DNA of 64,000 nt from Verrucomicrobiota bacterium (lineage in GTDB: Bacteria; Verrucomicrobiota; Lentisphaeria; JABSQK01; JAJFLO01). Numbering within the stretch: the stretch's first letter is position 1; each line of letters starts with the position of its first letter. The translations under genes were made by a program, and so were the position numbers. The notes under the pieces are model-generated. The model did no database searches. It saw only the letters and a program-made list of their open reading frames with translations, and was not told where the DNA came from. Shown one piece after another: positions 1-35,715 of the stretch. The stretch is taken from assembly GCA_021772615.1 (NCBI GenBank), contig JAJFLQ010000070.1, forward strand, positions 29,145 through 93,144, written 5' to 3'.

Positions 1-825
1 GATGAATTTACCTACCGAATTTCTGACGGCGCAGATACGTCTCTCGCGGCGACTGTCAATGTAATTGTCGATGATGTTGTTTTCATCCGCAACCACGAGT
101 CTCAGGTTGTAAACGACGACGGGCTAGATGTGGAGGTAACAGTATCATACGCTGTAGGCTTCAGCGGTGGGCCGATCACTCTGGAAGAAGTGCTGCCGCC
201 GATTGACGATGCAACCGCCTCATATACAGTTCCCTCTGGATCAGGTACGGACGGGTTCGATATCAGTGGTGAACAGCCGGAAACCGCTACGGAGTCTGGT
301 AACGTAATCAAATTCGTGTGGGGCGATTCTCAGGCGCTTCCGACCGCCAACCCGTTCACCTTTAATTATACGATCATCAACGCAGAGAACGCAGACGATG
401 TGATTGAGAAGCAGATCGTCGGCAGTATTAAGCACGGTATGAATACCGACGGCCCAAGCCTTGTTACTCGTTTTACCCCTGGAGCTTCAAGTTTCCATCC
501 TGCTGATTCCGATGAAAACGGTAGGATAAGCGCAATTGAATACTTGCTCTACGCCGGGCCGGCTGCTGATGCATTCCAAAAAGGCGCTAGCGGTCAATAT
601 TGCTTTGACGGCACGACGCTTCTTCCCGATGCCACCGGTTCCAGCTGTTCCGGACAACAGGTCACGCATCCCGCAGATACAAATGGCAATGCCAGAATCA
701 CTGCCATCGAATATCTCATTTTTGCAGGTCCCGCGGCTGACGTTTTCCAAAAAGGCGCTTCGGGTGCATACTGCTGGGACGGGATGACGCTCACGCCGGA
801 TACGGGCGGGGGCTGCGGAAACTGA
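1..825 (+). CDS. 3' end of a large secreted cadherin-like repeat protein, 5'-truncated by the window edge. It ends with two ~55-aa Ca-loop/Cys repeats.
   Basis: Frame 1 is open from nt 1 to the stop at 823-825; the ORF track shows only the part from the internal Met at 130. It begins DEFTYRISDGADTSLAATVNVIVDD, the end of a VNDAP-type repeat. C-terminal tandem repeat: HPADSDENGRISAIEYLLYAGPAADAFQKGASGQYCFDG / HPADTNGNARITAIEYLIFAGPAADVFQKGASGAYCWDG. Confidence 0.7.
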   Translation, partial: DEFTYRISDGADTSLAATVNVIVDDVVFIRNHESQVVNDDGLDVEVTVSYAVGFSGGPITLEEVLPPIDDATASYTVPSGSGTDGFDISGEQPETATESGNVIKFVWGDSQALPTANPFTFNYTIINAENADDVIEKQIVGSIKHGMNTDGPSLVTRFTPGASSFHPADSDENGRISAIEYLLYAGPAADAFQKGASGQYCFDGTTLLPDATGSSCSGQQVTHPADTNGNARITAIEYLIFAGPAADVFQKGASGAYCWDGMTLTPDTGGGCGN

Positions 826-916
826 ATTAGGCGCCGACGATACCCGACGTGCCAATCAGAGCCGCCAGATAATTCTGGGCAGCTCTTAAACCTAACTGAA
901 TCAGGAGACTGAAATC

Positions 917-3900
917 ATGACGATAGTTGCGAACAAAAAAGTTGTTTTTCTTTCCGTCCTTTCGACGATGTTGCTCCCCGGCCTACTTTTTGGTCAGATG
1001 TTCGACGGCACCCGAAGCGTAAGAGACGCATCGTCAGGGGATGTCGTAACCTGTTATACGTCAGGAAGTAATGTTGAGGTTACCATCGAAATTTCTGCTG
1101 CCACGGGTGATTCCAGTAATTTTGGATCATGGACGGTGGATGATGGCGTGCCGGACGGATGGTCGTTTGTAAGCGCGACCGATAACGGTCAATTTGATGC
1201 TGTCGGTGATCGTGTTAGCTGGACGGCTACCGGCAATCCGCCCAACGAACTCAGATACGTCCTTACTCCTGCGTCGACGGGTACCGCTGTTTTTTCCGTG
1301 AACGATATCGCAGGATTCAGCGGAGGCCTCATCGAGGGCACCATGGTCGACACAACCGTAGTTGAATGTGCCGATGCCGATTTGACGGCCAGCCTCGATA
1401 ACCCCGCCAACTCCGAACTGAACGTCGCCCAGAACACGCTGTCGCGCATGGTCAGTAACGGCAGCAACAGCGGTGATTTTACCGCGACGTTTAACGCGAT
1501 CGGTGCGCCTGGAAAGCCTGAGTTGGATCTGCTGTTTTTTCGTGTTGTAAAGGCGCAGGCCGGCGGACCACCATGGAATGTCAGCGACCCGATCGACGAG
1601 AGCAACAGTCCGACGTTCACTATGAGCAACGACGGCTGGCTACAGGTTGACGGCGAGCAGACAACAAGTACCAAGATAAATACCGCCAACAATTTTATGC
1701 ACACATTTAATATCGCGCTGGCTAATGCCGACTCCGACAGTCCGTCCGCGACAATCTCATGGGTCATCCCGACCGGGTTCATCGAATCAACGGTGGCCGA
1801 CGGAGAGGTGTACATCATGCAGATGCGGATCGTTGCATCAGGTGCCTTCGACACCAGCGGTCAATCCCTGGAACGTTTGTTGGGCGTGAATCAGCAAATG
1901 CCAGAAATCTTTCCAGTTGATCCTGCCGACGGCGGACTCGGGCCCGCGGTTGCATACTCGCAGGCAGGGACACACCAGGGCACGACCGGGCTCGCACGCC
2001 ATCCGGAAACCGGCTTGCTTTATGCCATTTTCCGGCCACAGGACCGGAATGCCACGCGTGTTCTGGGGCTCGTCAATCCCAATTCCGGTGAAATCGATAC
2101 CGTCGGCGATACCGGGCAGTCTATCGCGGATATCGCCTTTGGAGCCGATGGAACATTGTACGGCATCAGCGGCACGCGAGGACAAGGAGTATTCAGTGTT
2201 GCATCAGTATCAGCGGGTGACGTAAGTGAGCTTGACGGTGGCGATGTGCCGACCGTAGTTGAAACCGCTTTTTCAACCAATAGTCTTGCACTCAGTGGTA
2301 GCGAAACGGTCACGGTCCTGTTCGCTGGCGATGAATGGTTGATCGAGGACAATGACAGAGCCTTTGATTTGTCAATAGATTCCAGCACTCCCAACACTAT
2401 ACACGTATCGGAGGGCTCGAACACACTTTATTCAATCAGTCTCAATGACGGTAGCGTCACGGCATTGGTACGCATCGATGATTCCCCCGACGCCGCCGGA
2501 AAGGCTCTTGCATTCAATGACTCGGATGGCCTTCTTTATCATGCCTTCGGCTTCGATGCATCAGGATTTCAGGGGACGGGCATAGGCACGGGCTGCGGGT
2601 CGGGCGTTGGGTCTGGAAACAATCTCGACAATCGCAAATTCAAGAGTATCGATATCAGTGTGGATCCGCCAACGGTAACTGATATCAGTATTTCCGGTGA
2701 TGATTTCGATGAGCCGTTGGCTATGGCTTACGATACCGCCAACAACGATTTTATCCTTTCCGCAACCAACGAGAATTTGGAATTGACTTTTGTGTTTTCT
2801 GACACGCCGAACACGGCGACACCTTGTGCGACTTCAGTACAGCGTGCCGCGTGGTCCGGTGAGTCCGATGGTTTTGTCTCGGGAGCTAGTGTGATTACGG
2901 CGGGTGAAGTGACAGGGAACGCGGTGCGTTTGCAGGCCGATGTTCCAAATGTTTCCGGCGACCCACAGTTCATCGGAATACTTGAGTTTCCGGGTAAAGC
3001 GCCGGATGGCGGTCCCGCTTCTGGCGACAGCGACCTGAACGGAGGCAGTATTGGCGGCACGCTGATCGGTGGATCGATTTCTGTCGATGTCCGTCTTAGC
3101 TCGGTTAGGCCTGTGATCGTCCGCATATTGATCGGTAATGGCGAGGGCGACTTCTTCAAGGATTTCGAGGTTGACTCGACATCGTTTTCAACACTTTCGA
3201 TGAGCAACATACAGGCGAGTGACTTTACCGCGGAAGAGTCGGGTGCGGTGTTTAGCGGCGGAGTCTTTTCGTTTTCACTCGACATCCTTGCCGATGACGG
3301 ATTTGCGGCCGATAGCAATTTCTTCATTGATGTCGCCGATATCACGGTTGTGACAACTGGTGACGGCGGCGGAACACGGCAGGAAATTTTCAACGGTATC
3401 GCCGTTGGCGACGCGCTCGCCTTCGATGTGTTGGCAAGTGAGACCGCGCTCTTCAGGTTGTCTGCTTCTGGAGAGGCGACAATAATCACTGACGAACTTG
3501 ACAAGAAAGTCAAGGGGCTCGCGTTTTCGACGCAGTGGGAGGAAACCGTGTCATGGGCATTTAACGTGAATCCGTTTCAGCCTGTCGTTGCGAACGACGA
3601 CAACGATTCTGTCGACGCAGCCTTCTCCGTTGTCGAGGACTCAACAAACAATGTCCTGCCAATTCTGGCAAACGACCAAAATGGCGACGAAAACATCGAC
3701 CCGACGTCGATCGCGATCATTTCACAGCCGCGCTCGGACAGTACGCTGTCGATCGACGGCGGCGGCACGGTGCGATACTCGCCGGCACCGGATTTCTTTG
3801 GTACCGACACATTTACGTACACGGTAAACGATGCCGGTAGTCCGCCCGTTGCGTCAAACGAGGCCACGGTCATGATAACCGTCACGAACGTCAACGACGA

Positions 3901-6900
3901 TCCGATCGCATCCAACGACGATTTTGGGGATGGTGCTGACTCGGACGAGGATAGTGCTGTGACATTCAACGTGCTGACAAACGATTTTGATGTCGACGGC
4001 GATACGATTATTGTCATCGCTGTCGATGATAGCAGTGCCAGCGGCAGCGCAACATTCAATGCCAACGGTAACGTTACCTACAACCCGGATGACCTATTCG
4101 AATCGCTTGACGACGGCGAAAGCGACACCGACGTACTCACGTACACTATTAGCGACCAGGCCGGCGGCACGGCAATGGCGACAATCACAGTGACGATCAA
4201 TGGCGTCAATGACGCACCGGTAGCCGACGACGAAACCGCGTCGACAGACGAAGAAAGTGTCGTGACCACACCGGATGTCCTGGATGGCGACACAGACATC
4301 GAGGGCGATACGTTATCGATTGACAGCTTTGACAGTGTGAGCGCGGGCGGCGCCGCCGTGGCGCAAAACGGCAATGCATTCGATTACGATCCCAACGGTC
4401 AATTCGAGAGTCTCGCGCAGGGCGGTTCGACGCAGGACACCTTTAATTATCTGGTTAGCGACGGAGATCTCACCGACGAAGGACAGGTTACCGTCACCGT
4501 GTCGGGCGTCAATGATGCACCGACTGCGGTTGACCGCACGATTACTGTAACCACGGCCACCAGCACCGGCTCCCCCACAATTTTTGATCTTGAGGGTGAT
4601 GACGTTGATGACGGGCATGTCTTGACGATCGAGCAACTGTCGACACTAGTCCGTGTTGGCGGCAATGACGCATCGACAGCGACCACGCTGGACGCCACGC
4701 TTACCGGCCTCAGTGAGGTGCCGACACCGGTAGATACCGCTGCCACCGGGTCGGCGGCATTTAGCAACTGGAATCGCGCAAGCGATACGATTGATTTATC
4801 CGTGACGTTTTCAAATCTCTCCAGTCCGGTCGTTGGTGCGCACATACATGGCGCGGCAGGACCGACGGAAACCGCAAGTGTCGTGTTGAATCTGTTGGTG
4901 GACTCGCCGGCGCTTACCAATGCAGCTACCGATGTAACGTTGTCCACGAGTACCGGTGGCGCCATCACCGCTACGTGGGATTACAGCGGTTGCGACACGT
5001 CCGCATGCAATGGACTGGATGCTTCCGGAATCGAGGCGGCACTCGCGAGCGGTCAACTCTATGTCAACATCCATTCGCAGAATCATGCAGGCGGCGAGAT
5101 ACGCGGCCAGATTGGCCTGCCGTTGCGCGGCGGTGAGAGTTTTACCTTCAATGACGGCTCTGGCGTCGAGATGGAGCCGGGCGACCGTACTGCGGACGGC
5201 GCTGTGGATGGCGACGTCTACCAGTTCAGTTATCGCGTGGTCGATGAACATGATGCAGACTCGGGACAGCAACTGGTGACGATGAATGCAGTGGACAATC
5301 GCGTCCCGAACGCAGTTATCGACAATTTGACGTCGACGGATGAGGACACGGCTGTAGTGACCGAGAATGTACTGAGCAACGACTCGGACGACGACGGCGA
5401 CGACTTTACTATCGTTTCTCCGGTTGCGGATATCACCCTTGCCAGTGCGGGCGGCGGTATCGTTGTCCTCAACACCTCACCGGCGAATACGTTTACCTAT
5501 GATCCCAACGGACAATTCGAATTTCTCGCAGTCGGTGAGACGACGACGGACTCATTCACATATACCATCCGTGACGACAACAACGGTGAGGCGACAGGCA
5601 CGGTCGAGATTACGATCAACGGTGTGAATGACGATCCGATAGCCGCCGATGACGATTCCACCGACGGCGCCGAGAGCGATGAGGAAAACGAGGTGCTAAT
5701 CGATGTTCTTGCGAACGACAACGATCCGGATACATCGGACAATCCCAACTTAACCGTCACAGCGCTTGAAATTGCCGGACTTAAAGGCGATATCACGATC
5801 AGTAATAACGGTGACGACGTTACCTACAATCCCAATGGCCAGTTCGAATCGCTTGACGTCGGTGAGACGGACACCGACACCTTTGGCTACACGGTTTCCG
5901 ACGGCAATGGCGGCAGTGATACCGCGACCGTGACGGTCACGATAAATGGTGTGAACGATCTGCCGATAGCAGTAGATGATACCGACAGCACGGACGAAGA
6001 TACGCTGGTGTCGGTCAGCGTTCTTGGCAATGACGACGATCCCGATGACAGCGACCGGAATATCCTTGTGATTACGGCATTCGATTCAACCGGATCAACC
6101 GCCGGCATATCGATCAACGGAAGTGCGATTGATTACGATCCTTCAGGCCGTTTTGATGACCTGGATATCGGCGAGTCCGAAACGGTATCGTTCACTTATA
6201 CAATATCCGACGACAGCAACGCTGAGGCGACTGCTTCCGTCACGGTAACGATAAACGGTGTCAATGACGCCCCGACAGCTGTAGACGACGACGAATCGAC
6301 GACGGGAGATGCTGTGACCGACGAAGATACGGCGACCACGATTGATGTGCTGGAGAATGATCTTGATCCTGACGACCAGGGCATCCTCACGGCGTCGTTG
6401 CTCAGCGACGCGGGAATCAGCGGCGGTACGCTTACGGATAACGGAAACGGAACGTTCACGTTTGACCCGGCCGGTGACTTCGAGACGCTGGACGTGGACG
6501 AGTCGGACAGTGTCACCTTCACCTACACGGCTTCGGATGATAACGGCGCCACATCTACGGCGACCGTGACGATTACCATTGACGGCGTCAGCGACGCACC
6601 GGTTGCGTCAGCGTTCAATCTAAGTGTGAAGGCAAACAACTCCGACACCAATCCGAAAAACACAGTCGATGCCCCGTTATTCGCAACAGATATTGATGCC
6701 AGCGACACGGTTGACAGCGGCACCATTGTTTTCCGTGTCACGCGCCTGCCCGAGGATAAAGACGGCGGCAGCGCCGGTGATCTGCGTAAGCAGGGCGGCG
6801 GTTCCGTTGCGGAAGATGAGTCCATTACCGTTGTCGACCTGCCGTTGATCTTCGAGCCAGCCGCCGGGGCCCGTGGATTGATTACGTTCGATTATCTGGC

Positions 6901-9217
6901 TGAAGACGACAGTGGATTGCAATCCGCCGAGGTAACAATCAATATCACTGTGGGCGCGCCGCCGTGGTTTCCCTTTGTCACGCTGCCTGCAAGCGATACA
7001 ACGTTGGACAGCGAATTCTTTAATGTTCAGGTATACCAGGGAATTTCGGCGACACTGGATGCAAGCCTGGTGGTGTTGCCTGACGACGCCACTCCGCCGA
7101 GCGGCAGTGGAAGCACCGCGAGTGGCGATGTGTTTCTGATCGTTCGGGATACCGGCGATGACGGCGTATTTATCGACTTCGGCCTCGACGTCGACGGAAT
7201 CGATTACGGAGACCTCGATAATACGCATGGTGGAAACGGTACGGCGATTCATGTGCATAATGGCGGACCGTCGGAGCGTGGCCCGATCATCATTGACCTT
7301 CAGTGGTTCGGCGACAATCACGGGACGGTTTCGACCGGTACGGACAGCTTTTCGATTGATGTGCGGAATGCGGAGCTGACGCAGGTGCAGGGCAGTCATG
7401 ACACCGGGCTGACTCCCGCAGAAATTGTGGATCTGCTGAACACGAACAATACCTATGTCACCGTGCACGACGACGACTTCCCCACCGGGGCGTTACGGGC
7501 GAATCTGTGGGTGGATACTTTCTCAGGTCAATCTGTCGTGCTCGACGGTCCGACGGTCGTCGTTCCCAGCGATACGGATCCGCCATCCGGAAGCGGAAGT
7601 ACAGCGACGGGGGAGACCTCGCTATTGGTATATGACAATGGTGGAGGCGATATACGGTTCGACTTTGATCTGGCTGTCGACGGTATCGCATTCAATACAT
7701 TGGACATCACCGGCAACGGCGGTGTAGGCCATGGTGGAAACGGAACCGCGGTGCACATCCATCAAGGCGGTCCGACGGACCGCGGCGGTATCATTATCGA
7801 TGTCGAGTATTTCGCGACGGAAACGGTTTTCGGGTCGGTGACGGAAACCGATACCGGATTTGAATTCAGTGTAAAGGGCGCACCCGTCGATAGCGTACAG
7901 GGCGCACACAATACCGGGTTGACGCCGATTCGAATCCTGGATCTCGTTCGTCAGGGCCACAGTTATATCACCGTGCATGATTTGGATTTTCCGACGGGTG
8001 CGATTCGTGCGAATTTCGCAGCCGCTGTGAATTCGACCGGCGCGATCGAGGCGCCTGTTTTCGAAACGATCACGGATGAAACCGAAATCGCCGCCGAAAC
8101 GTACTTCCTCGCAGGTTTCACCGGCTTTCTGCCGAATGATTATCTCTTGTTTGCGCGTCCGGTGGATCTGGCATTGGGAATTAATAATCCTGCGGCATTT
8201 GGTGACTTCCTCAATGAGGTAGTGGACATCGAAGTAAACAGCTACGGCCGGGCCCGTGTCGGGGAATTTCCCGGGTCTGACATCGTTGATCAGGGTAACG
8301 GCGACGGTAGTTACGATTTATTTTTCAACGTCGAGAACGCACGTGGATTCGAAGTCATGGCGTCTGGAACGATAACGAATTTCGAGACAAGTCTGCGCAA
8401 GGTTTTTTCACCAGACGACAACGGCGATATCCCTCAAACACAGGAACAGGACGAACCCGAAACGATCGTGGTAACCGGAACGGATATGTTTGATGTGACG
8501 ATTTCTGCCTTCAATCCGATCGATGAACTGGTCCTGGGATTGCATCCTGTTGACTTCCCAGATTCCCCAATCGATCAGATGCAAAGCGCTAATCCTCCGG
8601 CGGTGACCCCGGGTAACCCCGGTGGGCTGCGGCCGCGTCGCGGCGATGTTATACAGGCGCCGCAGGGAACTGTGCCGGTAAACTTCAGTTGGAACCCAGT
8701 GGCCGGTGCGACGACGTACCGCGTGATCCTGTTTAACCTCGGAACCGGTAAGTTTATCATGAACATGACCGAATTCAGCAGCCTTGTCGCGCCGCCTGTA
8801 ACGCGGACGCTGGCGCCCGGCAAGTACAGCTGGTCGGTGCAGGCTGTCAATGCCGGAGGCGGTTCAACGTTGGCCAGCGCATGGACGAAACAACAGCAGT
8901 TTACAGTTATCGAAACATTATCGGTCCCAGTCATTGTCAACGTTGCCATTACATCGGCGCAACAACTTCAGCTTACGTTCGCGTCAGGGGGGCCGGGCAG
9001 TACTGGACAGCCCCCCGTGACTGTGGTAAACGCATTCTGGATCGATGCATCTAACATTGGATTAGGCTGGCAGCCATTAGATGGCTCTGATGTCGGCGGC
9101 GGCGTTTGGGACTTCGGCAATTCCGCAGATTTCGCAGCAGGAGATCTGGTAGAGATTCAGGGGCAGATTACGAATACCACTGGGATTGGTGAATTCTTTA
9201 AGTTCGATCTGGAGTAA
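917..9217 (+). CDS. Giant secreted adhesin-like protein (2766 aa): signal peptide, beta-propeller-like LY-repeat region, ~10 cadherin-like/VCBS-type repeats, three CHRD domains, Fn3-like domain, C-terminal GW/W.WD/DLE module.
   Basis: Single long ORF. N-terminal MTIVANKKVVFLSVLSTMLLPGLLFG signal. Repeated ...FTYTVSDGNGGSDTATVTVTINGVNDAP... units. CHRD signatures (LTGLSEVPTPVDTAATGSAAF ... GAHIHGAAGPTE ... YVNIHSQNHAGGEIRGQI). SWNPVAGATTYRV Fn3-like motif. Confidence 0.85.
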   Translation: MTIVANKKVVFLSVLSTMLLPGLLFGQMFDGTRSVRDASSGDVVTCYTSGSNVEVTIEISAATGDSSNFGSWTVDDGVPDGWSFVSATDNGQFDAVGDRVSWTATGNPPNELRYVLTPASTGTAVFSVNDIAGFSGGLIEGTMVDTTVVECADADLTASLDNPANSELNVAQNTLSRMVSNGSNSGDFTATFNAIGAPGKPELDLLFFRVVKAQAGGPPWNVSDPIDESNSPTFTMSNDGWLQVDGEQTTSTKINTANNFMHTFNIALANADSDSPSATISWVIPTGFIESTVADGEVYIMQMRIVASGAFDTSGQSLERLLGVNQQMPEIFPVDPADGGLGPAVAYSQAGTHQGTTGLARHPETGLLYAIFRPQDRNATRVLGLVNPNSGEIDTVGDTGQSIADIAFGADGTLYGISGTRGQGVFSVASVSAGDVSELDGGDVPTVVETAFSTNSLALSGSETVTVLFAGDEWLIEDNDRAFDLSIDSSTPNTIHVSEGSNTLYSISLNDGSVTALVRIDDSPDAAGKALAFNDSDGLLYHAFGFDASGFQGTGIGTGCGSGVGSGNNLDNRKFKSIDISVDPPTVTDISISGDDFDEPLAMAYDTANNDFILSATNENLELTFVFSDTPNTATPCATSVQRAAWSGESDGFVSGASVITAGEVTGNAVRLQADVPNVSGDPQFIGILEFPGKAPDGGPASGDSDLNGGSIGGTLIGGSISVDVRLSSVRPVIVRILIGNGEGDFFKDFEVDSTSFSTLSMSNIQASDFTAEESGAVFSGGVFSFSLDILADDGFAADSNFFIDVADITVVTTGDGGGTRQEIFNGIAVGDALAFDVLASETALFRLSASGEATIITDELDKKVKGLAFSTQWEETVSWAFNVNPFQPVVANDDNDSVDAAFSVVEDSTNNVLPILANDQNGDENIDPTSIAIISQPRSDSTLSIDGGGTVRYSPAPDFFGTDTFTYTVNDAGSPPVASNEATVMITVTNVNDDPIASNDDFGDGADSDEDSAVTFNVLTNDFDVDGDTIIVIAVDDSSASGSATFNANGNVTYNPDDLFESLDDGESDTDVLTYTISDQAGGTAMATITVTINGVNDAPVADDETASTDEESVVTTPDVLDGDTDIEGDTLSIDSFDSVSAGGAAVAQNGNAFDYDPNGQFESLAQGGSTQDTFNYLVSDGDLTDEGQVTVTVSGVNDAPTAVDRTITVTTATSTGSPTIFDLEGDDVDDGHVLTIEQLSTLVRVGGNDASTATTLDATLTGLSEVPTPVDTAATGSAAFSNWNRASDTIDLSVTFSNLSSPVVGAHIHGAAGPTETASVVLNLLVDSPALTNAATDVTLSTSTGGAITATWDYSGCDTSACNGLDASGIEAALASGQLYVNIHSQNHAGGEIRGQIGLPLRGGESFTFNDGSGVEMEPGDRTADGAVDGDVYQFSYRVVDEHDADSGQQLVTMNAVDNRVPNAVIDNLTSTDEDTAVVTENVLSNDSDDDGDDFTIVSPVADITLASAGGGIVVLNTSPANTFTYDPNGQFEFLAVGETTTDSFTYTIRDDNNGEATGTVEITINGVNDDPIAADDDSTDGAESDEENEVLIDVLANDNDPDTSDNPNLTVTALEIAGLKGDITISNNGDDVTYNPNGQFESLDVGETDTDTFGYTVSDGNGGSDTATVTVTINGVNDLPIAVDDTDSTDEDTLVSVSVLGNDDDPDDSDRNILVITAFDSTGSTAGISINGSAIDYDPSGRFDDLDIGESETVSFTYTISDDSNAEATASVTVTINGVNDAPTAVDDDESTTGDAVTDEDTATTIDVLENDLDPDDQGILTASLLSDAGISGGTLTDNGNGTFTFDPAGDFETLDVDESDSVTFTYTASDDNGATSTATVTITIDGVSDAPVASAFNLSVKANNSDTNPKNTVDAPLFATDIDASDTVDSGTIVFRVTRLPEDKDGGSAGDLRKQGGGSVAEDESITVVDLPLIFEPAAGARGLITFDYLAEDDSGLQSAEVTINITVGAPPWFPFVTLPASDTTLDSEFFNVQVYQGISATLDASLVVLPDDATPPSGSGSTASGDVFLIVRDTGDDGVFIDFGLDVDGIDYGDLDNTHGGNGTAIHVHNGGPSERGPIIIDLQWFGDNHGTVSTGTDSFSIDVRNAELTQVQGSHDTGLTPAEIVDLLNTNNTYVTVHDDDFPTGALRANLWVDTFSGQSVVLDGPTVVVPSDTDPPSGSGSTATGETSLLVYDNGGGDIRFDFDLAVDGIAFNTLDITGNGGVGHGGNGTAVHIHQGGPTDRGGIIIDVEYFATETVFGSVTETDTGFEFSVKGAPVDSVQGAHNTGLTPIRILDLVRQGHSYITVHDLDFPTGAIRANFAAAVNSTGAIEAPVFETITDETEIAAETYFLAGFTGFLPNDYLLFARPVDLALGINNPAAFGDFLNEVVDIEVNSYGRARVGEFPGSDIVDQGNGDGSYDLFFNVENARGFEVMASGTITNFETSLRKVFSPDDNGDIPQTQEQDEPETIVVTGTDMFDVTISAFNPIDELVLGLHPVDFPDSPIDQMQSANPPAVTPGNPGGLRPRRGDVIQAPQGTVPVNFSWNPVAGATTYRVILFNLGTGKFIMNMTEFSSLVAPPVTRTLAPGKYSWSVQAVNAGGGSTLASAWTKQQQFTVIETLSVPVIVNVAITSAQQLQLTFASGGPGSTGQPPVTVVNAFWIDASNIGLGWQPLDGSDVGGGVWDFGNSADFAAGDLVEIQGQITNTTGIGEFFKFDLE
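3557..4607 (+). repeat. Coding tandem repeats: cadherin-like/VCBS-type ~100-aa units (first block).
   Basis: Repeated VNDDP/VNDAP-terminated units with DxDGD and FTYTV motifs are visible in the translation. Confidence 0.6.
4690..5120 (+). other. CHRD domain 1 within the giant protein.
   Basis: LTGLSEVPTPVDTAATGSAAFSNW ... VGAHIHGAAGPTETASVV ... GQLYVNIHSQNHAGGEIRGQIG matches the CHRD consensus (EVPP ... AHIHxG ... YVNVHT ... GEIRGQI). Confidence 0.7.
5237..6722 (+). repeat. Coding tandem repeats: cadherin-like/VCBS-type ~100-aa units (second block, about 5 units).
   Basis: Units ending EITINGVNDDP, VTVTINGVNDLP, VTVTINGVNDAP, VTITIDGVSDAP. Confidence 0.6.
7070..8010 (+). other. CHRD domains 2 and 3 in tandem.
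   Basis: Two copies of the pattern ATPPSGSGSTASG / TDPPSGSGSTATG ... GNGTAIHVHNGGPSERGPIIID / GNGTAVHIHQGGPTDRGGIIID ... YVTVHDDDFPTGALRANL / YITVHDLDFPTGAIRANF. Confidence 0.6.
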
Positions 9218-9333
9218 CAGATCGGTGTTCATCTTGTCTGCGGTCCGATCATTCGGTTCGCTGACATCGCAACAGTCAGCATTGGACGTTTACATTGCGC
9301 AGTTACATCAAAATCATATTGAGGAGACAGTTG

Positions 9334-10215
9334 ATGAAATCTCGTAAGGTTAGTTTGGGTATATTTATTGCAACCATGCCGTTGTTGCTGGGGGCGGCTG
9401 AGATCTCGACGGAGGGAATGACGTTCCACATCGGCGCGAATTACCGGAATTTCGATGATGTCGAATTTCAGGGTTTCGCATTCGATAACTTCAATAATTC
9501 CGCGGTTGTCGGCGGACCATTTGGTGTTCAGGGTTTCGTTAATGTGGGGTCGAACCCGCCGCCCCAGATCCAGGCCGACTATGTCATGTTCGGTGGCTCC
9601 GAGGATGACACGGATGGCTGGGGACCGGGCTTCGGCATTGAGTTGCCGGTTGGTAACGAAGAGGAAGACATTGCCCTGAGTTTGGTCGGAAACTTCGGAT
9701 TTTTCAGTCTACAGGCTGGCGAAATCAGCTCGGACGGCCTGCTGACCGGATCTGCTCCTCACGATGTGCTAGGCGATGGAACGGTTGTTCCCATCAACCC
9801 GAATACGACACCGGACCCAACGCAGAATCTCACGCCAGGCGCGCCTACAGGGGTGCAAGTGGAAAATGACTTTGACATGGAGTTGTATGTACTGGATATC
9901 GGCCTTAAGGGCACTATCGGCGTAATGGATAATTTCGCTTTCGCTGTCGCAGCCGGGCCTACGCTGAGCATCGGCGACCTCGACACCTTTCAACGCGAGG
10001 TCGGTAGTGCCGGCGGACGGCGTACGAGTGATTCGGAAACAGACGTTGTTTTGGGACTGTATGTTAATCTTGAAGCCTCTTACCAGTTCAATGAATCGCT
10101 CGGAGTGTCTCTTGGGTATCGTTATGATTATGCTAGTGACGATGTCAGCACGGATCAGGCGGAGTTGGATTTGGATGGACATGGAGGTCAGATCCGCGTC
10201 AATATTGCTTTCTAG
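9334..10215 (+). CDS. Outer-membrane beta-barrel protein (OmpA-like/OMP_b-brl family), ~294 aa.
   Basis: GAGGAG RBS 7 nt upstream of the ATG at 9334. Signal peptide MKSRKVSLGIFIATMPLLLGAAE. Alternating hydrophobic beta-strand pattern. C-terminal ...GGQIRVNIAF ends in Phe. Upstream in-frame ATG at 9295 is less likely. Confidence 0.7.
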   Translation: MKSRKVSLGIFIATMPLLLGAAEISTEGMTFHIGANYRNFDDVEFQGFAFDNFNNSAVVGGPFGVQGFVNVGSNPPPQIQADYVMFGGSEDDTDGWGPGFGIELPVGNEEEDIALSLVGNFGFFSLQAGEISSDGLLTGSAPHDVLGDGTVVPINPNTTPDPTQNLTPGAPTGVQVENDFDMELYVLDIGLKGTIGVMDNFAFAVAAGPTLSIGDLDTFQREVGSAGGRRTSDSETDVVLGLYVNLEASYQFNESLGVSLGYRYDYASDDVSTDQAELDLDGHGGQIRVNIAF

Positions 10216-10263
10216 CATACATAACATCTCCATCACACGTTGCACCGATTATACGAGTTTATT

Positions 10264-13200
10264 ATGAACCGGTTTCCTCGGGAACCGGTTTTTTTATTTC
10301 GCAACATCAAGCCGTTGACCGCAGCGGTTCTGCTCTTGCTGGCAGCGTCGGGTCTTCGCGGCTATGGTGCGGTATCTACCCTGGTGTCGCGGGGTAGCGA
10401 CGGGCTGCCCGGAGTTGGGCATAGCGGACGCACCGATACCACGGCCGAAGGTATTGTTTACCGACGTGCGCACGTGGATGATAAGGGGGCTGTGTTCTTC
10501 CTGAGCCGTGCGCCGTTGGCGCCGGAGGACACAAACGGCGAAGTGAATGACCTGTATCGTTTTCGCGCCGCAACGGCTACCGTGATAGACTCACCTGTCG
10601 AAAGCGCATCTTTTCCCTCCGGGTGCACCGAGTTGTCGTCGGATATCTTCGATTTCGCAATATTCGGTGCATCGGACAATTGGTATGTCGCGCGGCAGAC
10701 ATCGCCGCTGCCTCCACCGCCTCCTCCTGAGTATCTGTTCTCCCTGACGATCGATGGGAGTAAGCGGGCGATTTTTTGCAGATCCGGCGTGAAACATATC
10801 GATTTTGCGAGTAGCGGAAATCTGGGCGTCTTTGATACGCAAATAGACGATTCGAGTATCCGCCATATTTGGCTGCACGAGGCGAATACGGATGGCGTTA
10901 CATCCATTACTGCAGATGCTGATGGAAACAGCTTCTGTCCTGTTATTTCTGATGACGGCAGTCATGTCTATTTCCTGTCCCAATCATCCAATCTGGCCGG
11001 CGCGCCCGGATTGCTGAAGTACGATGTGGCAGCGGATGTGACGACGTCTGTCGTATCGTTTCAAATCACGGAGCTGGACGCGGCTGTTGATGCGCCGCAT
11101 GTCAGTGAAAGCAGCGATGTCGTATGTTTTTCCTCGAAGAATACAGTCATCGTGAACAATGACACAAACGGAAAACGCGATGTGTTCGTATGCGATGCCG
11201 GCAATGTCGAGCGGATCACAGCGGACAATGGCGCACAGTCAAACGGCGATGACGATAGCCCTCGGCTGAGTCGTGACGGCCGTTATATCGTATTCAGATC
11301 GAATGCCGGTAACCTGATTCGTGACGGCGGTAACGGCCGCTATCAGATATACGTTCATGACCGATTCACACGGGTCATACAGTGTGTAAGCGTCACGAAC
11401 GATATCGCACCGGCGCTTGCAGATCGCGATTGTTACGCCCCCGAGATATCCCCGAACGGACGATATGTCACCTTTGTAACCGACGCCGTCAATCTTGCGG
11501 CACCGTACATGGCGGACGGACAGGTCAACGGTCATCAACAGGTTTATCTTGTTGACACCCGTCCGGCAGTCGCGGAGCATCACACGATCAGCGGTAGAAC
11601 GGGTAACGCGATCGAGTTCTACCTTCGCGGACAACATCCGGACGGACATGAATTGAGCTATGCGCTTCAATCGAGTCCATCTGATGGCGCTGTCAGGGAC
11701 AAAGACGGTACAGCGGTGGAAATCGGGATCCTTTTCGCGACCGATTCGTTCCCATGGTCGTACGAACCGAACAGTTCGTCAGTCTTGTCAGACTCGTTCG
11801 AGTTTCTGCTGCTATCGACAGATTCATTGCCTTCCCGTCCTGCTACCGTCAGCATGCGTTTGATCCCTACCGGCACGGGTTATATTCGACGCGTAAGTGT
11901 CAGTGAATCGGGTGGGGAGGGAACACAACATGCCTTCGATCGTACGGCACCAATTCCGTTGGGAAATGTGGATGTGAGTGACAGCGGGAATCGCATCGTC
12001 TTTGATTCTCGTTCAAGTGAATTGAATAGCGAGAATGTCAACACGAATTCTGATGTGTATGTGCATGACAGAATTGCAGGTCGTCTTTTTCAAATCAGTG
12101 CGATTCACGACCCGGCGAGCGGCATGGCGGCAATTTCAGGGGACGGAAGGTCTGTCGTCTATTTTACCGATGCTGGTCGACAATTGATCTGGCAGGCTGT
12201 GGCGTCGCGATCTGGTGTGGTGCTTGATACGTTCACTTTTCGCCCCGAGTCGGCGCCTGCCATATCTGATGATGGGACGCGCGTGGCGTTCCGTAACGGT
12301 GCCGCTCTGTATCTGTTCGACTTCAGCATCATGAATGCACCCGAGCTACTCATTGCGAATGGCGATGAACCCCAAATATCGGGCGATGGCAATGTAATAG
12401 CATACTCAAGCCTTGACGATGATATGATTCATTTGTTCTACGTAACTTCGCGAAGCTCGCCGTCGTTCTCAATTGCCGGCTCGGAGCCGCAACTCTCCGT
12501 AAGCGGAAGGTATCTGGCTTATCTTAATGAGAGCGGGCGGCCCGAAAGACGAAATCTTGTATCTGGAGAGGTCGTTGGTCCGGATGTTGGGGCGTCGACA
12601 AACACGTCGATTTCCGGCACTGGTCGTTTTGTTTACTACACTAAAGGAGGGCAGGGGTTTCGTTACGATGCTAATCTGGACATCGTTGAAGCCGTCAGCG
12701 CGACTGCGACCGAAGTTGGCGACGACACGACATTTGCCGGTGTCCTGTCCAGTTCCGGATCTGTCGCTGCGTTTGCGTCTGATGCCGGAAACTTGGTGAA
12801 CGGTGACGTGAATAATAAGCGTGATATATTTACAACAATTTTCCCATTGCCACAGAATTCATTGCCAGCCGCGGATGCACCGGATCTTATAGTGATGGAA
12901 GATTCAGAGTCGATATCAATTCCATTGAGCTATACCGATGCCGAGGGTGATGATGTCGAAACAATGGTTACAGAAGCTCCGTCACACGCGGGGATGTTTG
13001 TGCTCAGTCCGCCTGTATTCGGGTCCGCGTTCTGGACGGTTGCGTACAAGCCGGCGGCAGATTTTTTCGGAACGGATTCGTTTTCATATCGGCTTCGTGA
13101 TGGTTCCGGATTCTGGACAAAGTCGGCAAGCGTCGCGATTACGGTGACCAACGTCAACGACCAACCGTCGATCGACGCGATTGACGATATGACCGTCGTG

Positions 13201-14811
13201 GAGGGCGGCACGCTACGTTTCCCTGTGATAGCCACGGATCCGGATCTGGACGACCTGACATTTACGGTGACGTCAGGAGTCGGGTCGATCAGCGACGGCA
13301 TGTTCGTGTATGAGCCGATGCATGATGTGGTGAGCCATAACGGTGATCCGCCATATACCAGGGCGTTCTCGGTTTCCGTCATGGTAAGTGACGGTCTCCT
13401 TGACGACACGACAACCTTTACAGTTACTATCACCGATCAGGACCAGCCTCCGGTAATCGAGGGAGACGTGACCCTGGAGCCGTTGGCGCCGCGAACCAGC
13501 GACAACCTTACGGTTCGGGCGACGGCGGGTGATCCGGACGGTGATGCCGTTGCTCTGAGCTACGTATGGATGCGCGACGGTGATTCCGCGGGGTTACCTG
13601 ACTCTGATACCATCGTGTCAGATCTAACCGCGAAGAATCAGACATGGAGTGTCGCTGTAACGGCAACGGCCGGTAATGCATCAACGGTTGTCTCAGGCAA
13701 TGCTGTCACGATACAGAACACACCGCCTGTTGTGTCGTCGATGACCGTCACGGTTGCGGAGGACAGTACCGAGACAATCGACTTGATTGCGAGTGACGGC
13801 GATGCCGATTCGCCGCTGCGCTATACGGTTCTGAACGGGCCTGAGCACGGCAGGCTCGAGAACGCGCCGCCGTCTCTTGTCTATGTTCCTGATCCGGACT
13901 ACTTCGGCTCGGACGCATTTCGTGTGATTGCGAGTGATGATACCGATGATTCCGCCACAGCAACAATTACCATCAATGTGACGCCGCAACCGGACGCACC
14001 GGAATTGGTGGTGGAAGACCTTATCCTGCTGAGTGGTACACGAACCGCCACGGTGGGATTCTCGCAGTTGAAGGTTGAGGATGTGGACGAACCAGACGGC
14101 GTGGCGAACGCAGATGTAACCGTGATCATCAATCAGCTGCCTGTCATCGGAGGATTCACGCACGGCGGCAACCCCGTCAGTGCCGGCGAGCGGATCGTAC
14201 TTTCCGCGTTTCCAATTGTGTTCGTACTTGCGGATGCGCTTGAGGATGATGTGTTCGTGAGCGACAGTGCGGTACTGACCGTCGAGCACCGTGATGATCC
14301 TGAAGGTGTTGCTTCCATGCCGGTGGAAATGGGCATTTACGTGGGTGCCGATGAGATCTCCATTGCCCTCAAGCGCGGGTGGAATTTGATATCCTTCCAG
14401 CACCCGCCGTTGAATCGTAGTTCGAGCGATTTACGCCTTGTTTCAGGTCGGGGGCTTGAACAGATGTGGTGCTGGGATCCGTTGCTGCAGCGGCTGCGGG
14501 CAATAACACAACTGCAACCGGCGAAGGCGAAAGGGTACTGGCTGTTTGCTCTGGAGGATGACGTTATTGCGAACTTGCCGGTCGGCGTTAGGGACAACGG
14601 CATGGTCGCCATCGAGCCATTGTGGAATCTTGTCGGGCCCGTTGGCGCTGGTGAGTCCGTGGCCGTGCCCGCAGAAGTGGGCGGTTTCGCGTGGTCATGG
14701 CGGGGCGATAAAAACGGATTCATCTACACCGATGCAATGCAAGAAGGCGAGGGCTACTGGCTATTTTTCGAAGCCGATGGGACGTCCCAGGTTGACCTTG
14801 GACTCGAGTAA
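10264..14811 (+). CDS. Large secreted protein (~1516 aa): signal peptide, >=12 TolB-like PD40 beta-propeller repeats, cadherin-like VNDQP repeats, tandem C-terminal GW/W.WD/GYWLF/VDL module.
   Basis: MNRFPREPVFLFRNIKPLTAAVLLLLAASG signal. Repeats such as ISDDGSHVYFLSQSSNLAG, LSRDGRYIVFRSNAGNLI, ISPNGRYVTFVTDAVNLA. VTNVNDQPSIDAIDD. C-terminal GWNLISF ... MWCWD ... KGYWLFA ... LWNLVGP ... FAWSWRG ... GYWLFFEADGTSQVDLGLE. Alternative upstream start at 10240. Confidence 0.85.
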   Translation: MNRFPREPVFLFRNIKPLTAAVLLLLAASGLRGYGAVSTLVSRGSDGLPGVGHSGRTDTTAEGIVYRRAHVDDKGAVFFLSRAPLAPEDTNGEVNDLYRFRAATATVIDSPVESASFPSGCTELSSDIFDFAIFGASDNWYVARQTSPLPPPPPPEYLFSLTIDGSKRAIFCRSGVKHIDFASSGNLGVFDTQIDDSSIRHIWLHEANTDGVTSITADADGNSFCPVISDDGSHVYFLSQSSNLAGAPGLLKYDVAADVTTSVVSFQITELDAAVDAPHVSESSDVVCFSSKNTVIVNNDTNGKRDVFVCDAGNVERITADNGAQSNGDDDSPRLSRDGRYIVFRSNAGNLIRDGGNGRYQIYVHDRFTRVIQCVSVTNDIAPALADRDCYAPEISPNGRYVTFVTDAVNLAAPYMADGQVNGHQQVYLVDTRPAVAEHHTISGRTGNAIEFYLRGQHPDGHELSYALQSSPSDGAVRDKDGTAVEIGILFATDSFPWSYEPNSSSVLSDSFEFLLLSTDSLPSRPATVSMRLIPTGTGYIRRVSVSESGGEGTQHAFDRTAPIPLGNVDVSDSGNRIVFDSRSSELNSENVNTNSDVYVHDRIAGRLFQISAIHDPASGMAAISGDGRSVVYFTDAGRQLIWQAVASRSGVVLDTFTFRPESAPAISDDGTRVAFRNGAALYLFDFSIMNAPELLIANGDEPQISGDGNVIAYSSLDDDMIHLFYVTSRSSPSFSIAGSEPQLSVSGRYLAYLNESGRPERRNLVSGEVVGPDVGASTNTSISGTGRFVYYTKGGQGFRYDANLDIVEAVSATATEVGDDTTFAGVLSSSGSVAAFASDAGNLVNGDVNNKRDIFTTIFPLPQNSLPAADAPDLIVMEDSESISIPLSYTDAEGDDVETMVTEAPSHAGMFVLSPPVFGSAFWTVAYKPAADFFGTDSFSYRLRDGSGFWTKSASVAITVTNVNDQPSIDAIDDMTVVEGGTLRFPVIATDPDLDDLTFTVTSGVGSISDGMFVYEPMHDVVSHNGDPPYTRAFSVSVMVSDGLLDDTTTFTVTITDQDQPPVIEGDVTLEPLAPRTSDNLTVRATAGDPDGDAVALSYVWMRDGDSAGLPDSDTIVSDLTAKNQTWSVAVTATAGNASTVVSGNAVTIQNTPPVVSSMTVTVAEDSTETIDLIASDGDADSPLRYTVLNGPEHGRLENAPPSLVYVPDPDYFGSDAFRVIASDDTDDSATATITINVTPQPDAPELVVEDLILLSGTRTATVGFSQLKVEDVDEPDGVANADVTVIINQLPVIGGFTHGGNPVSAGERIVLSAFPIVFVLADALEDDVFVSDSAVLTVEHRDDPEGVASMPVEMGIYVGADEISIALKRGWNLISFQHPPLNRSSSDLRLVSGRGLEQMWCWDPLLQRLRAITQLQPAKAKGYWLFALEDDVIANLPVGVRDNGMVAIEPLWNLVGPVGAGESVAVPAEVGGFAWSWRGDKNGFIYTDAMQEGEGYWLFFEADGTSQVDLGLE

Positions 14812-33848: not shown

Positions 33849-33924
33849 TGGCAGGTGAGACAGGGTTCGAACCTGCGACCTGCGGTTTTGGAGACCGCTG
33901 CTCTACCAGCTGAGCTACTCACCT
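33849..33924 (-). tRNA. tRNA-Trp (anticodon CCA), CCA end encoded.
   Basis: The reverse complement folds as a cloverleaf: AGGTGAG-TA-GCTC-AGCTGGTA-GAGC-A-GCGGT-CTCCAAA-ACCGC-AGGTC-GCAGG-TTCGAAC-CCTGT-CTCACCT-G-CCA. Confidence 0.9.

Positions 33925-35642: not shown

Positions 35643-35715
<73 letters not shown>

Follow-up and report, generated by a model that had tools for sequence, protein, structure and literature searches.

X-module-dockerin dyads are part of the type II/III cohesin-dockerin systems of cellulosomes. The dockerin of type I is a compact loop-helix-helix-loop-helix module of about 60–70 aa (PMC12484212). In giant proteins of Omnitrophota, dockerin-like helices flank a CBM35-like beta-barrel (bioRxiv 10.1101/2023.11.21.568195), and surface proteins of the 'choice-of-anchor' type usually have an anchor as their terminal part (bioRxiv 10.1101/2023.03.06.531300). 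I describe here a hitherto unannotated C-terminal domain, about 115 aa long, composed of two 57-aa repeats and encoded in a 64-kb stretch of DNA (the whole stretch that was analysed, hereafter the window), which invites comparison with these systems.

The module ends P0001, a secreted protein of an uncultured bacterium that an RpoB search assigns to Lentisphaerota, whose gene enters the window with its 3' part (see the table). The full-length protein, 529 aa long, was recovered by exhaustive profile search, and contig L001, which shows 0 mismatches with the window over 8853 nt, reaches 2911 nt further upstream. The N-terminus of P0001, MSTRATRIIGIVFTVISLNGFGQ, resembles a signal peptide, and the protein contains one Big_9 domain (residues 187-276, E 6e-19). 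An earlier note on this DNA had placed the repeats at the end of a cadherin-like adhesin, a description that is loosely right at best, since the carrier has 529 aa and it is the next gene that encodes a giant adhesin-like protein. The full length of P0001, only 529 aa, likewise rules out a large adhesin truncated at its 5' end.

Table. Features of the carrier gene, the module and the neighbouring genes, in window coordinates.
Feature	Position	Strand	Remarks
3' part of carrier gene (residues 256-529 of P0001)	1..825	+	translation; 5' part precedes the window
End of single cadherin-like / Big_9 domain	1..63	+	weak Big_9 and tandem-95 matches, window aa 1-26
Pre-module beta-sandwich, divergent 'GW-like' domain	76..480	+	
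Repeat 1 of module, 57 aa	481..651	+	HPAD, EF-hand loop, 17-residue helix, beta-hairpin
Predicted Ca-binding loop 1, DSDENGRISAIE	505..540	+	D1, D3, N5, G6, I8, E12
Cys pair, repeat 1	601..648	+	TGC 601-603 (hairpin strand 1), TGT 646-648 (tail); probable disulfide
Repeat 2 of module, 57 aa	652..822	+	
Predicted Ca-binding loop 2, DTNGNARITAIE	676..711	+	D1, N3, N5, I8, E12
Cys pair, repeat 2	772..816	+	TGC 772-774, TGC 814-816
Stop codon TGA	823..825	+	module is the extreme C-terminus of P0001
Next gene, 2766-aa giant secreted protein	917..9217	+	7 Big_9/cadherin domains, 3 CHRD domains; candidate partner/scaffold
'GW' beta-sandwich, first domain of the giant after the signal peptide	995..1366	+	alignment A8; candidate receptor
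Outer-membrane beta-barrel gene	9295..10215		same gene row

The repeat is genuine; it arose long ago and purifying selection maintains it. Both copies lie in frame 1 of the + strand and read as previously quoted, with a period of 57 aa. They are 66% identical, and their local alignment scores 195, as compared with 23 ± 4.6 for 5000 shuffles (z = 37). Because the codons differ at 20 of the 35 residues that are identical between the copies, the tandem represents an old duplication held by selection at the protein level, and a recent DNA repeat is ruled out. An assembly artefact is ruled out as well by an independent Logan assembly with identical DNA. Rfam and tRNA scans gave nothing relevant near the module.

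An exhaustive profile search over 1.84 billion proteins returned a family of only 29 clusters, with the window protein as top match (E 6e-72); related loci were sought with a degenerate DNA pattern. The pairing of the two repeats that the earlier note had described is conserved in the homologues, 27 of the 29 representatives having both. The module is located at the extreme C-terminus in 24/29 (tail ≤10 aa), and a signal-peptide-like start is found in about 21/29, the remainder being mostly fragments. The family signature comprises an H at position -3 relative to the loop, the loop residues D1, I8 and E12, a G-P kink in the helix and the hairpin motif G-x-Y-x-[WFY]-[DN]-G, all in two C-terminal copies, and both window repeats hold every invariant position (alignments A4 and A6). 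Two aromatic residues of the hairpin are conserved: Y40 in 44 of 44 units, and W, F or Y at position 42.

No known family extends over the segment. In Pfam and NCBIfam no model covers the module, the Dockerin_1 and EF-hand models giving sub-threshold scores confined to the loop. A word-index protein search with the 112-aa segment gave no match, and the same search with the family alignment retrieved two true members and otherwise only weak EF-hand proteins. Regarding sorting signals (PEP-CTERM, LPXTG, T9SS CTD), NCBIfam gave no match and the end of the protein, ...TPDTGGGCGN, has no hydrophobic stretch. Excalibur, RTX, TSP3 and sorting-signal readings were consequently rejected: there are no family matches, and the hydrophobic tail is absent.

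The module is mobile between proteins. It is also found as the terminal domain of an M64-like peptidase and, in a LamG protein, close to the N-terminus. GW domain and repeat are fused in P0022 and P0023, which are single-repeat members, and the order repeat-GW-repeat is found in P0004, P0017 and P0027.

The EF-hand-type loop noticed earlier in repeat 1 is genuine; a canonical 12-residue loop is in fact present in both repeats and constitutes the best-conserved part of the family. DSDENGRISAIE and DTNGNARITAIE both have the oxygen ligands at positions 1, 3, 5 and 12 and the hydrophobic residue at position 8 that characterize an EF-hand loop. Among the 44 family units, position 1 is D in 44, position 3 is N or D in 40, position 5 is D or N in 44, position 8 is I in 43 and position 12 is E in 43. 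A relaxed EF-loop pattern has no other match in the six-frame translation of the window. Ordinary EF-hand proteins are the best sequence-profile matches of the family, closer than dockerins: the family profile matches bacterial 80-aa EF-hand pairs with an E of ~1e-5, Entamoeba CaBP with 5e-7 and calmodulin with ~1e-4. No EF-hand Pfam model matches the window segment at E ≤10, and the scores of these models in other family members (12-19 bits, for cutoffs of 25-30) are below threshold.

The structure prediction that the earlier note had called for gave a compact and confident AlphaFold model (pLDDT 93.2, pTM 0.83), in which each repeat consists of the loop, a 17-residue helix that starts at loop position 10, and then a beta-hairpin. 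In silico, the module is thus one compact pseudo-symmetric domain, for which a Foldseek search against solved structures gave no global fold match (TM ≤0.23, E ≥1). In the DSSP string of the model, residues 17 and 74, at loop position 7 of the respective repeats, are each marked as a single bridge, and this suggests loop-to-loop pairing. A second model, which covers the preceding domain as well, has the same secondary structure and the same bridge residues; its pTM is 0.60, the mutual orientation of beta-sandwich and module being undefined. The module is predicted to bind calcium, each loop coordinating one Ca2+ via positions 1, 3, 5, 7 (backbone), 9 and 12, and the two loops would be joined by a short beta-bridge like those of EF-hand pairs. 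If so, the domain would stiffen only once it is outside the cytoplasm, where Ca is plentiful.

The two cysteines that each window repeat carries, proposed earlier to form a disulfide, are both found in 20 family units, are both missing from 19, and occur one alone in 5. Such co-occurrence is disulfide-like, and in the Cys-bearing subgroup, which includes the window protein, a disulfide probably links each hairpin with the tail that follows it. The same counts indicate, conversely, that the pair is dispensable and does not define the module.

The gene of the giant protein starts 91 nt after the carrier gene, and no promoter-like or terminator-like site was found in window 700-1000. An HMM built from alignment A8, which contains this very sequence, scores the GW domain of the giant with an E of 2.7e-39. 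In Pfam this domain type has weak DUF11 similarity only, and the likeness of the beta-sandwich to cohesins is no better than its likeness to pilin and macroglobulin domains. At eight loci (the window/L001, L002, L005, L042, L043, L044, L048/49 and L050/51), several of which may be orthologous and hence not fully independent, one or more module genes are directly followed by a gene for a protein that begins with a signal peptide and then a GW domain (E 1e-26 to 1e-47). This GW-first protein is large or giant in seven of the eight (the window and six others) and 438 aa long in one. The GW neighbour is absent from locus L052, which encodes P0020. The module itself always comes after a GW-like beta-sandwich, and the domain that precedes it in the window protein is GW-like. 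Tandem paralogue genes are found for P0002 and P0001, with P0002 upstream, for P0014 and P0011, and for P0008 and P0007. An outer-membrane beta-barrel gene belongs to the same gene row.

A related module was found after the choice-of-anchor Q beta-helix proteins. This unannotated single-copy C-terminal module ('HPAD...AAWK') occurs in Verrucomicrobiota, Kiritimatiellota, Desulfobacterota and Pseudomonadales MAGs. With the tandem unit it has in common H-P-A-D, the EF loop and the beginning of the helix, and both are C-terminal; hhalign aligns the two with a probability of 97.4% and an E of 1.3e-11 over 23-33 columns. By contrast with the tandem module, it has one Ca loop, is about 70 aa long and follows different passenger domains. 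Its second half, W..P..IPxDYVTRAGYL..GGxYxNDG..P..W, has no significant similarity to the tandem unit; hhalign does give the alignment expected of a degenerate loop-less repeat, but with a probability of 6% (E 0.006), and this interpretation was rejected as unsupported. At 13 single-copy loci GW-like domains are present in a large protein encoded by the next gene, the matches being weak (E 1e-3 to 1e-9).

The explanation that I tentatively favour is a new module for Ca-dependent docking or attachment, dockerin-like by analogy and not by membership, with the GW domain as its candidate partner. The docking or anchoring role is one that I infer from the gene neighbourhood and the domain fusions. 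Comparative genomics would then point to a Ca-dependent attachment handle, by which two proteins, the one of ~520 aa with the cadherin domain and P0002, the paralogue encoded upstream of it, would be tethered to the giant surface protein encoded directly downstream, the likeliest contact being the initial domain of the giant, the GW beta-sandwich. Such a handle would be a functional analogue of dockerin-cohesin or X-module-dockerin, homologous to neither. Gene adjacency could, however, mean co-secretion or co-regulation without physical contact, and the module protein has a GW-like domain of its own, so that binding could also take place in cis, as in X-module-dockerin. A wider and more doubtful proposal is that the HPAD-type EF-loop modules, tandem and single-copy, and the GW-type beta-sandwiches constitute a previously unrecognised Ca-dependent docking pair, a counterpart of cohesin-dockerin in PVC-group and some other Gram-negative bacteria, that would mount smaller secreted proteins on giant or multi-GW scaffolds.

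The extreme C-terminal place of the module on signal-peptide proteins with varied passengers is also what would be seen if it were an anchor to the cell envelope or matrix, replacing PEP-CTERM, LPXTG or T9SS anchors by Ca-dependent binding of lipopolysaccharide, exopolysaccharide or peptidoglycan. The single-copy HPAD module does occupy the anchor slot of choice-of-anchor Q proteins, the aromatics of the hairpin strand (Y40, and W/F at i+2) could make a sugar-stacking platform, and the gene row includes one for an outer-membrane beta-barrel. Pfam, NCBIfam and fold searches, however, gave no similarity to carbohydrate- or cell-wall-binding families, conserved aromatics are equally likely to form the hydrophobic core of so small a domain, and this reading does not account for GW domains that recur as close neighbours of the module or fused to it; I consider such an anchor unlikely. 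About as improbable is a Ca-dependent folding cap without partner, in which the EF loops would only stiffen and protect, outside the cell, the C-terminal end of the preceding beta-sandwich, in the manner of extender domains stabilised by Ca or of RTX-type folding during export. Calcium typically stabilises adhesin-type proteins that have many cadherin and Big_9 domains. The invariable GW-like beta-sandwich before the module agrees with a cap, the repeats of P0004, P0017 and P0027 that flank a GW-like domain suggest association in cis, and a role in stability fully accounts for the conservation of the Ca loops. Nevertheless, one would not expect a mere cap to be confined to the last domain, to move among passengers as unrelated as an M64 peptidase, LamG and beta-helix proteins, or to track GW-first neighbour genes. 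The many beta-domains of the giant manage without the module.

A third possibility, still more improbable, is that repeats of different chains pair by their EF loops and thereby link P0002 to P0001 or dimerise P0022 and P0023. Tandem paralogue genes are frequent, loop pairing is suggested by the model, and the single-repeat members need a second repeat to form a loop pair. Yet 27 of the 29 representatives have two repeats per chain, which AlphaFold confidently folds into one intramolecular domain that leaves no loop unpaired. Lastly, a divergent true dockerin of the PF00404 lineage that binds a classical cohesin encoded elsewhere in the genome is very improbable and close to refuted. There are indeed two C-terminal Ca loop-helix segments, and Dockerin_1 is the sole Pfam match on the window segment (14.0 bits, E 0.058, residues 63-78, in loop 2, for a gathering threshold of 22.9 bits), with weak matches again in P0024 and in a single unit and 13-16 bits in other members. 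But homology to dockerins, whose duplicated segments had come to mind in the earlier note, is not borne out, given that this score is confined to the loop, that the repeat is 57 aa long with an added hairpin, and that fold searches with the module model matched no solved dockerin. As for the cohesin-like partners that it had suggested looking for, PF00963 has no match in the window proteins, and a family member, P0019, has a weakly cohesin-like N-terminus (E 0.022). On these matches a cohesin was set aside as candidate partner.

To my knowledge, almost nothing is known about surface assembly of the kind that a docking handle would imply. Were the module such a handle, it would show how uncultured Lentisphaerota assemble multi-protein surface structures round giant adhesin-like proteins and, via the related single-copy module, how many Verrucomicrobiota and Kiritimatiellota do the same. 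Docking by an EF loop plus helix would then have arisen more than once or have diverged far beyond detection by dockerin models, and the system might offer protein engineering a small, orthogonal, EDTA-reversible binding pair. At the minimum, the results add two domain families absent from Pfam and NCBIfam, along with a candidate partner, the GW domain.

How the module relates to known systems is best seen by comparing it with each in turn. With the canonical EF-hand pair (PF13499, PF13202, PF00036) it has in common the consensus at loop positions 1, 3, 5, 8 and 12 and, in the model, an exiting helix from loop position 10 and an apparent pairing of the loops by a short bridge. By contrast, the entering (E) helix of the EF-hand is missing, model residues 1-16 and 52-73 being coil, each unit bears an extra beta-hairpin, and the module is extracytoplasmic, at the C-terminus of surface proteins. 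The type I dockerin (PF00404; PMC12484212) is likewise C-terminal on secreted modular proteins, internally duplicated and pseudo-two-fold symmetric, each half being an EF-hand-like Ca loop followed by a helix and devoid of an entering helix; in both cases the gene of a large surface protein with many domains, a possible scaffold, is close to those of the carriers. The repeat unit is, however, 57 aa long in the module and about 22 in the dockerin, and the whole about 115 and about 70 aa, respectively. Unlike those of the dockerin, the halves of the module each have a beta-hairpin and a 17-residue helix with a Gly-Pro kink. A His that precedes the loop by three residues is invariant, further invariant residues are P, G and Y, and a Cys pair is optional. 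In addition, the loops, which lie at opposite ends of the dockerin, are probably adjacent in the module, as the position 7 bridges of the model suggest.

Two further systems resemble the module by architecture. P0004, P0017 and P0027 recall the Omnitrophota case in that two Ca-loop/helix halves are split by an inserted beta domain, but there the phylum and the beta domain are others, and the unit is repeated within a giant protein whereas the module is terminal. In the X-module-dockerin dyad of types II/III, an Ig-like beta-sandwich likewise stands directly before a C-terminal two-loop Ca module. Neither half of the dyad has detectable homology to its counterpart here, where the sandwich is GW-like (weakly DUF11-like); by analogy, the beta-sandwich and the module may nevertheless act as one functional unit, as in X-module-dockerin.

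The last 114 codons of the partial gene that opens the window encode two 57-aa repeats, whose frame 1 translation matches exactly the sequences quoted in the earlier note. The repeats are 66% identical and their local alignment score is 195, against 23 ± 4.6 for shuffled sequences (n=5000, z = 37), which confirms the C-terminal tandem repeat with EF-hand loops that had been described there. Different codons are used at 20 of the 35 residues that are identical between the repeats; the duplication is therefore old and has been maintained at the protein level. These codon differences rule out a recent DNA repeat and also, together with the agreement of an independent Logan assembly (contig L001, identical to the window across 8853 nt), an assembly artefact. 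A relaxed EF-loop pattern, run over all six reading frames of the 64-kb window, gives two matches, both in the repeats.

A two-repeat profile was searched exhaustively against 1.84 billion representative proteins, which yielded 29 proteins at E<1e-3, 25 of them at E<1e-10. The repeats are kept in homologues, two copies being found in 27 of the 29 members. The module ends at most 10 residues from the C-terminus in 24 members, and about 21 have a signal-peptide-like start, the remainder being mostly fragments. Conservation, counted across 44 repeat units, is strongest in the Ca loop (position 1, D 44/44; position 3, N/D 40/44; position 5, D/N 44/44; position 8, I 43/44; position 12, E 43/44), but extends to a His three residues upstream of it (43/44), the helix Pro (44/44) and a G-x-Y-x-[WFY]-[DN]-G motif (G and Y both 44/44). 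The two Cys tend to co-occur (both in 20 units, neither in 19, a single one in 5; Fisher 1e-7 without phylogenetic correction), but the pair is not universal, a distribution that fits an optional form of the disulfide proposed earlier. Since the passenger domains differ (cadherin/Big_9 proteins, an M64-like peptidase, a LamG protein), the module is mobile. In the LamG protein (P0026, 1212 aa), the tandem module is divergent and occupies residues 150-261, close to the N-terminus and not at the C-terminus, with an 8-9-residue insertion (RDPNDPIV) directly after the conserved A-G-P.

The profile search suggested in the earlier note disclosed no known family that covers the module. The sole Pfam match of the window module is to Dockerin_1 (E 0.058, 14 bits versus a cutoff of 22.9) and spans 16 residues of loop 2; NCBIfam gave no match. 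In other members, matches to EF-hand_5, EF-hand_1 and Dockerin_1 are likewise sub-threshold and confined to the loop. Against all PDB sequences, the module profile retrieves ordinary EF-hand proteins (Entamoeba CaBP, 5e-7; calmodulin, ~1e-4), aligned over only ~22 residues that comprise the loop and the helix start, and dockerins are absent from the best 60 matches. A word-index search with the profile extended only to small bacterial EF-hand pair proteins (~1e-5). Word-index protein searching missed nearly the whole family, the window's own protein included, whereas the exhaustive HMM search succeeded; for short divergent modules, negatives from indexed searches should not be taken as absence.

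An AlphaFold2 model built from an alignment of 20 tandem-module sequences (pLDDT 93.2, pTM 0.83) predicts that each repeat consists of a coil, the Ca loop, a 17-residue helix, one helical turn and a beta-hairpin. As in EF-hands, the helix starts at loop position 10; it extends through the conserved Gly-Pro. Because each repeat has a single beta-bridge residue, at loop position 7, the model suggests that the two loops pair as EF-hand pairs do. Judged from loop conservation and the model, the module probably binds two Ca2+ and folds as one pseudo-symmetric unit, with one disulfide per repeat in the Cys subgroup. Taken together, the sequence data firmly establish a real, rare and unannotated domain family that has two canonical EF-hand loops and lies C-terminally on exported proteins.

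The exhaustive search also recovered the full-length carrier, P0001, in which a signal-peptide-like N-terminus is followed by an unannotated domain, a cadherin-like/Big_9 domain (E 6e-19), a beta-sandwich and the two repeats. As P0001 has 529 aa and a single cadherin-like/Big_9 domain, the carrier is not a giant adhesin. Its gene is adjoined upstream by that of P0002, a paralogue of the same architecture with its own tandem module, whose repeat 2 has lost the Cys pair. The gene for a giant protein follows after a gap of 91 nt that contains no promoter-like or terminator-like site. The 2766-aa and 1523-aa proteins encoded downstream end alike (...FKFDLE and ...VDLGLE), which may reflect a common C-terminal signal. 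The remaining window is housekeeping (rplB, rplD, fusA, rpoB, rpoC, tuf, rpsA), and the two tRNA genes around tuf lie in the usual setting of ribosomal and RNA polymerase genes; beyond these two, Rfam has zero matches in the window. Since the top named matches of RpoB are Lentisphaeria MAGs (64-71% identity), the host is, on this evidence, an uncultured Lentisphaerota bacterium of the PVC group.

Positions of the features discussed (window coordinates unless a contig is named)
Feature	Position	Strand	Remark
P0002 gene	L001:257-1876		539 aa; lies 1.0-2.7 kb before window position 1
3' gene end (P0001)	nt 1 to TGA 823-825	+	frame 1
Repeat 1	481-651	+	57 aa
Repeat 2	652-822	+	57 aa
Giant protein	917-9217		2766 aa; next gene; 7 Big_9/cadherin, 3 CHRD domains
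GW domain	995-1366		first domain of 2766-aa protein
Outer-membrane beta-barrel protein	9295-10215		306 aa; after giant
PD40/cadherin protein	10240-14811		1523 aa; after beta-barrel gene
tRNA-Trp(CCA)	33849-33924	-	flanks tuf
tRNA-Thr(GGU)	35643-35715	-	flanks tuf

The giant begins with a GW domain, an unannotated ~120-aa beta-sandwich with the signature E-x-[LI]-P-x-G-W...R-[IV]-[ST]-W, for which Pfam gives weak DUF11 similarity at most. At eight loci, one or more module genes are immediately followed by a gene for a protein that starts with a signal peptide and a GW domain (GW profile E 1e-26 to 1e-47). This protein is a giant in the window/L001 (after P0002 and P0001), L002 (P0005, P0022), L005 (P0015, P0016), L044 (P0012, P0017) and L050/L051 (a 527-aa protein ending in GW plus repeat and cut at the contig start, then P0023), a CHRD-bearing giant in L043 (P0008, P0007), and a GW-first protein in L042 (P0014, P0011) and L048/L049 (P0006). 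The family member P0020 has no GW-type neighbour gene. The two domains are also fused, in P0004, P0017, P0022, P0023 and P0027: P0022 has GW plus one repeat, and P0004, P0017 and P0027 are repeat-GW-repeat proteins. The beta-sandwich preceding the window module is likewise GW-like, though divergent, by hhalign (91%, E 1.1e-6, 94 columns). In the window, L005, L042 and L043, where modules are of the Cys type, the giants' GW domains contain a Cys pair, made up of an early ..C-Y.. and a terminal ..E/Q/G-C; in L002, L048 and L050, where modules have no Cys, this pair is missing, and L044 is mixed. This matching is probably a lineage effect. The genes for module proteins are broken up on two metagenome contigs of low coverage (L005:1176-2913, ORFs of 157 and 434 aa; L043:3182-4857, ORFs of 99, 123 and 336 aa), probably by assembly frameshift errors and not by gene decay.

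A genome scan by DNA pattern for H-P-A-D-x-[DN]-x-[DN]-x-x-I-x-x-x-E-[YF] gave 36 loci, of which L033 (a Lentisphaeria MAG) alone belongs to the tandem family. Of the remainder, about 25-28 (L007, L011-L013, L015, L017, L018, L020, L023-L025, L028, L030, L034, L036-L041 among them) encode a single-copy C-terminal module of ~70 aa, in Verrucomicrobiota, Kiritimatiellae (Kiritimatiellota), Pontiellaceae, Desulfobacterota and Pseudomonadales MAGs. Its consensus, HPADxNxDWxISxxEyxAYAAAWK...IPxDYVTRAGYL..GGxYxNDG..P..W, contains one EF-loop, and neither Pfam nor NCBIfam has a model that covers the module. HPAD, loop and helix start are common to this module and the tandem unit (hhalign 97.4%, E 1.3e-11); beyond the helix start, hhalign finds no significant similarity. 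The single-copy module adjoins a preceding choice-of-anchor Q domain (its score exceeds the cutoff in four of the six tested proteins), its carriers of this type being beta-helix proteins. This domain type takes its name from surface proteins that terminate in anchors of several alternative kinds (bioRxiv 10.1101/2023.03.06.531300). At 13 single-copy loci the carrier gene is followed by one for a large protein whose GW-like matches are weak and, in the five that were Pfam-scanned, alternate with CHB_HEX_C_1/Fn3_assoc domains with a period of ~200 aa.

The module is likely to be an extracytoplasmic, EF-loop-based Ca module with a docking or anchoring role. Gene neighbourhood and fusions speak for a functional connection to GW domains, and are compatible with cis packing and trans docking alike. 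My tentative preference is for a Ca-dependent attachment handle, by which the module would link the ~520-aa proteins with the giant surface protein encoded next to them, the coupling site being the giant's N-terminal GW domain. The module could instead act in cis, as a partner-less Ca-dependent cap stabilising the GW-like domain that precedes it, which I consider unlikely. An envelope or glycan anchor seems similarly improbable. Oligomerisation of module with module is quite unlikely, and a true dockerin, which fails on Pfam score, on size and topology and on fold match, is barely conceivable. Of the earlier interpretation, the unannotated C-terminal family and its EF-hand loops stand, but the carrier is no giant adhesin and the Cys pair is optional. 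What emerges is a new domain family with a concrete candidate partner, the GW domain of the adjoining giant.

The module contains EF-hand loops but differs from EF-hands in having no entering helix; it falls below the threshold of EF-hand models and has no global fold match. It resembles dockerins in its duplicated loop-helix, its C-terminal place on secreted modular proteins and the scaffold-like giant nearby, while differing from them in its score below the Pfam cutoff and in size, topology and fold. As an attachment handle, its role would be analogous to that of dockerin-cohesin or X-module-dockerin pairs. The repeat-GW-repeat form has an architectural parallel in Omnitrophota giant proteins, in which dockerin-like helices lie on both sides of a CBM35-like barrel (bioRxiv 10.1101/2023.11.21.568195).
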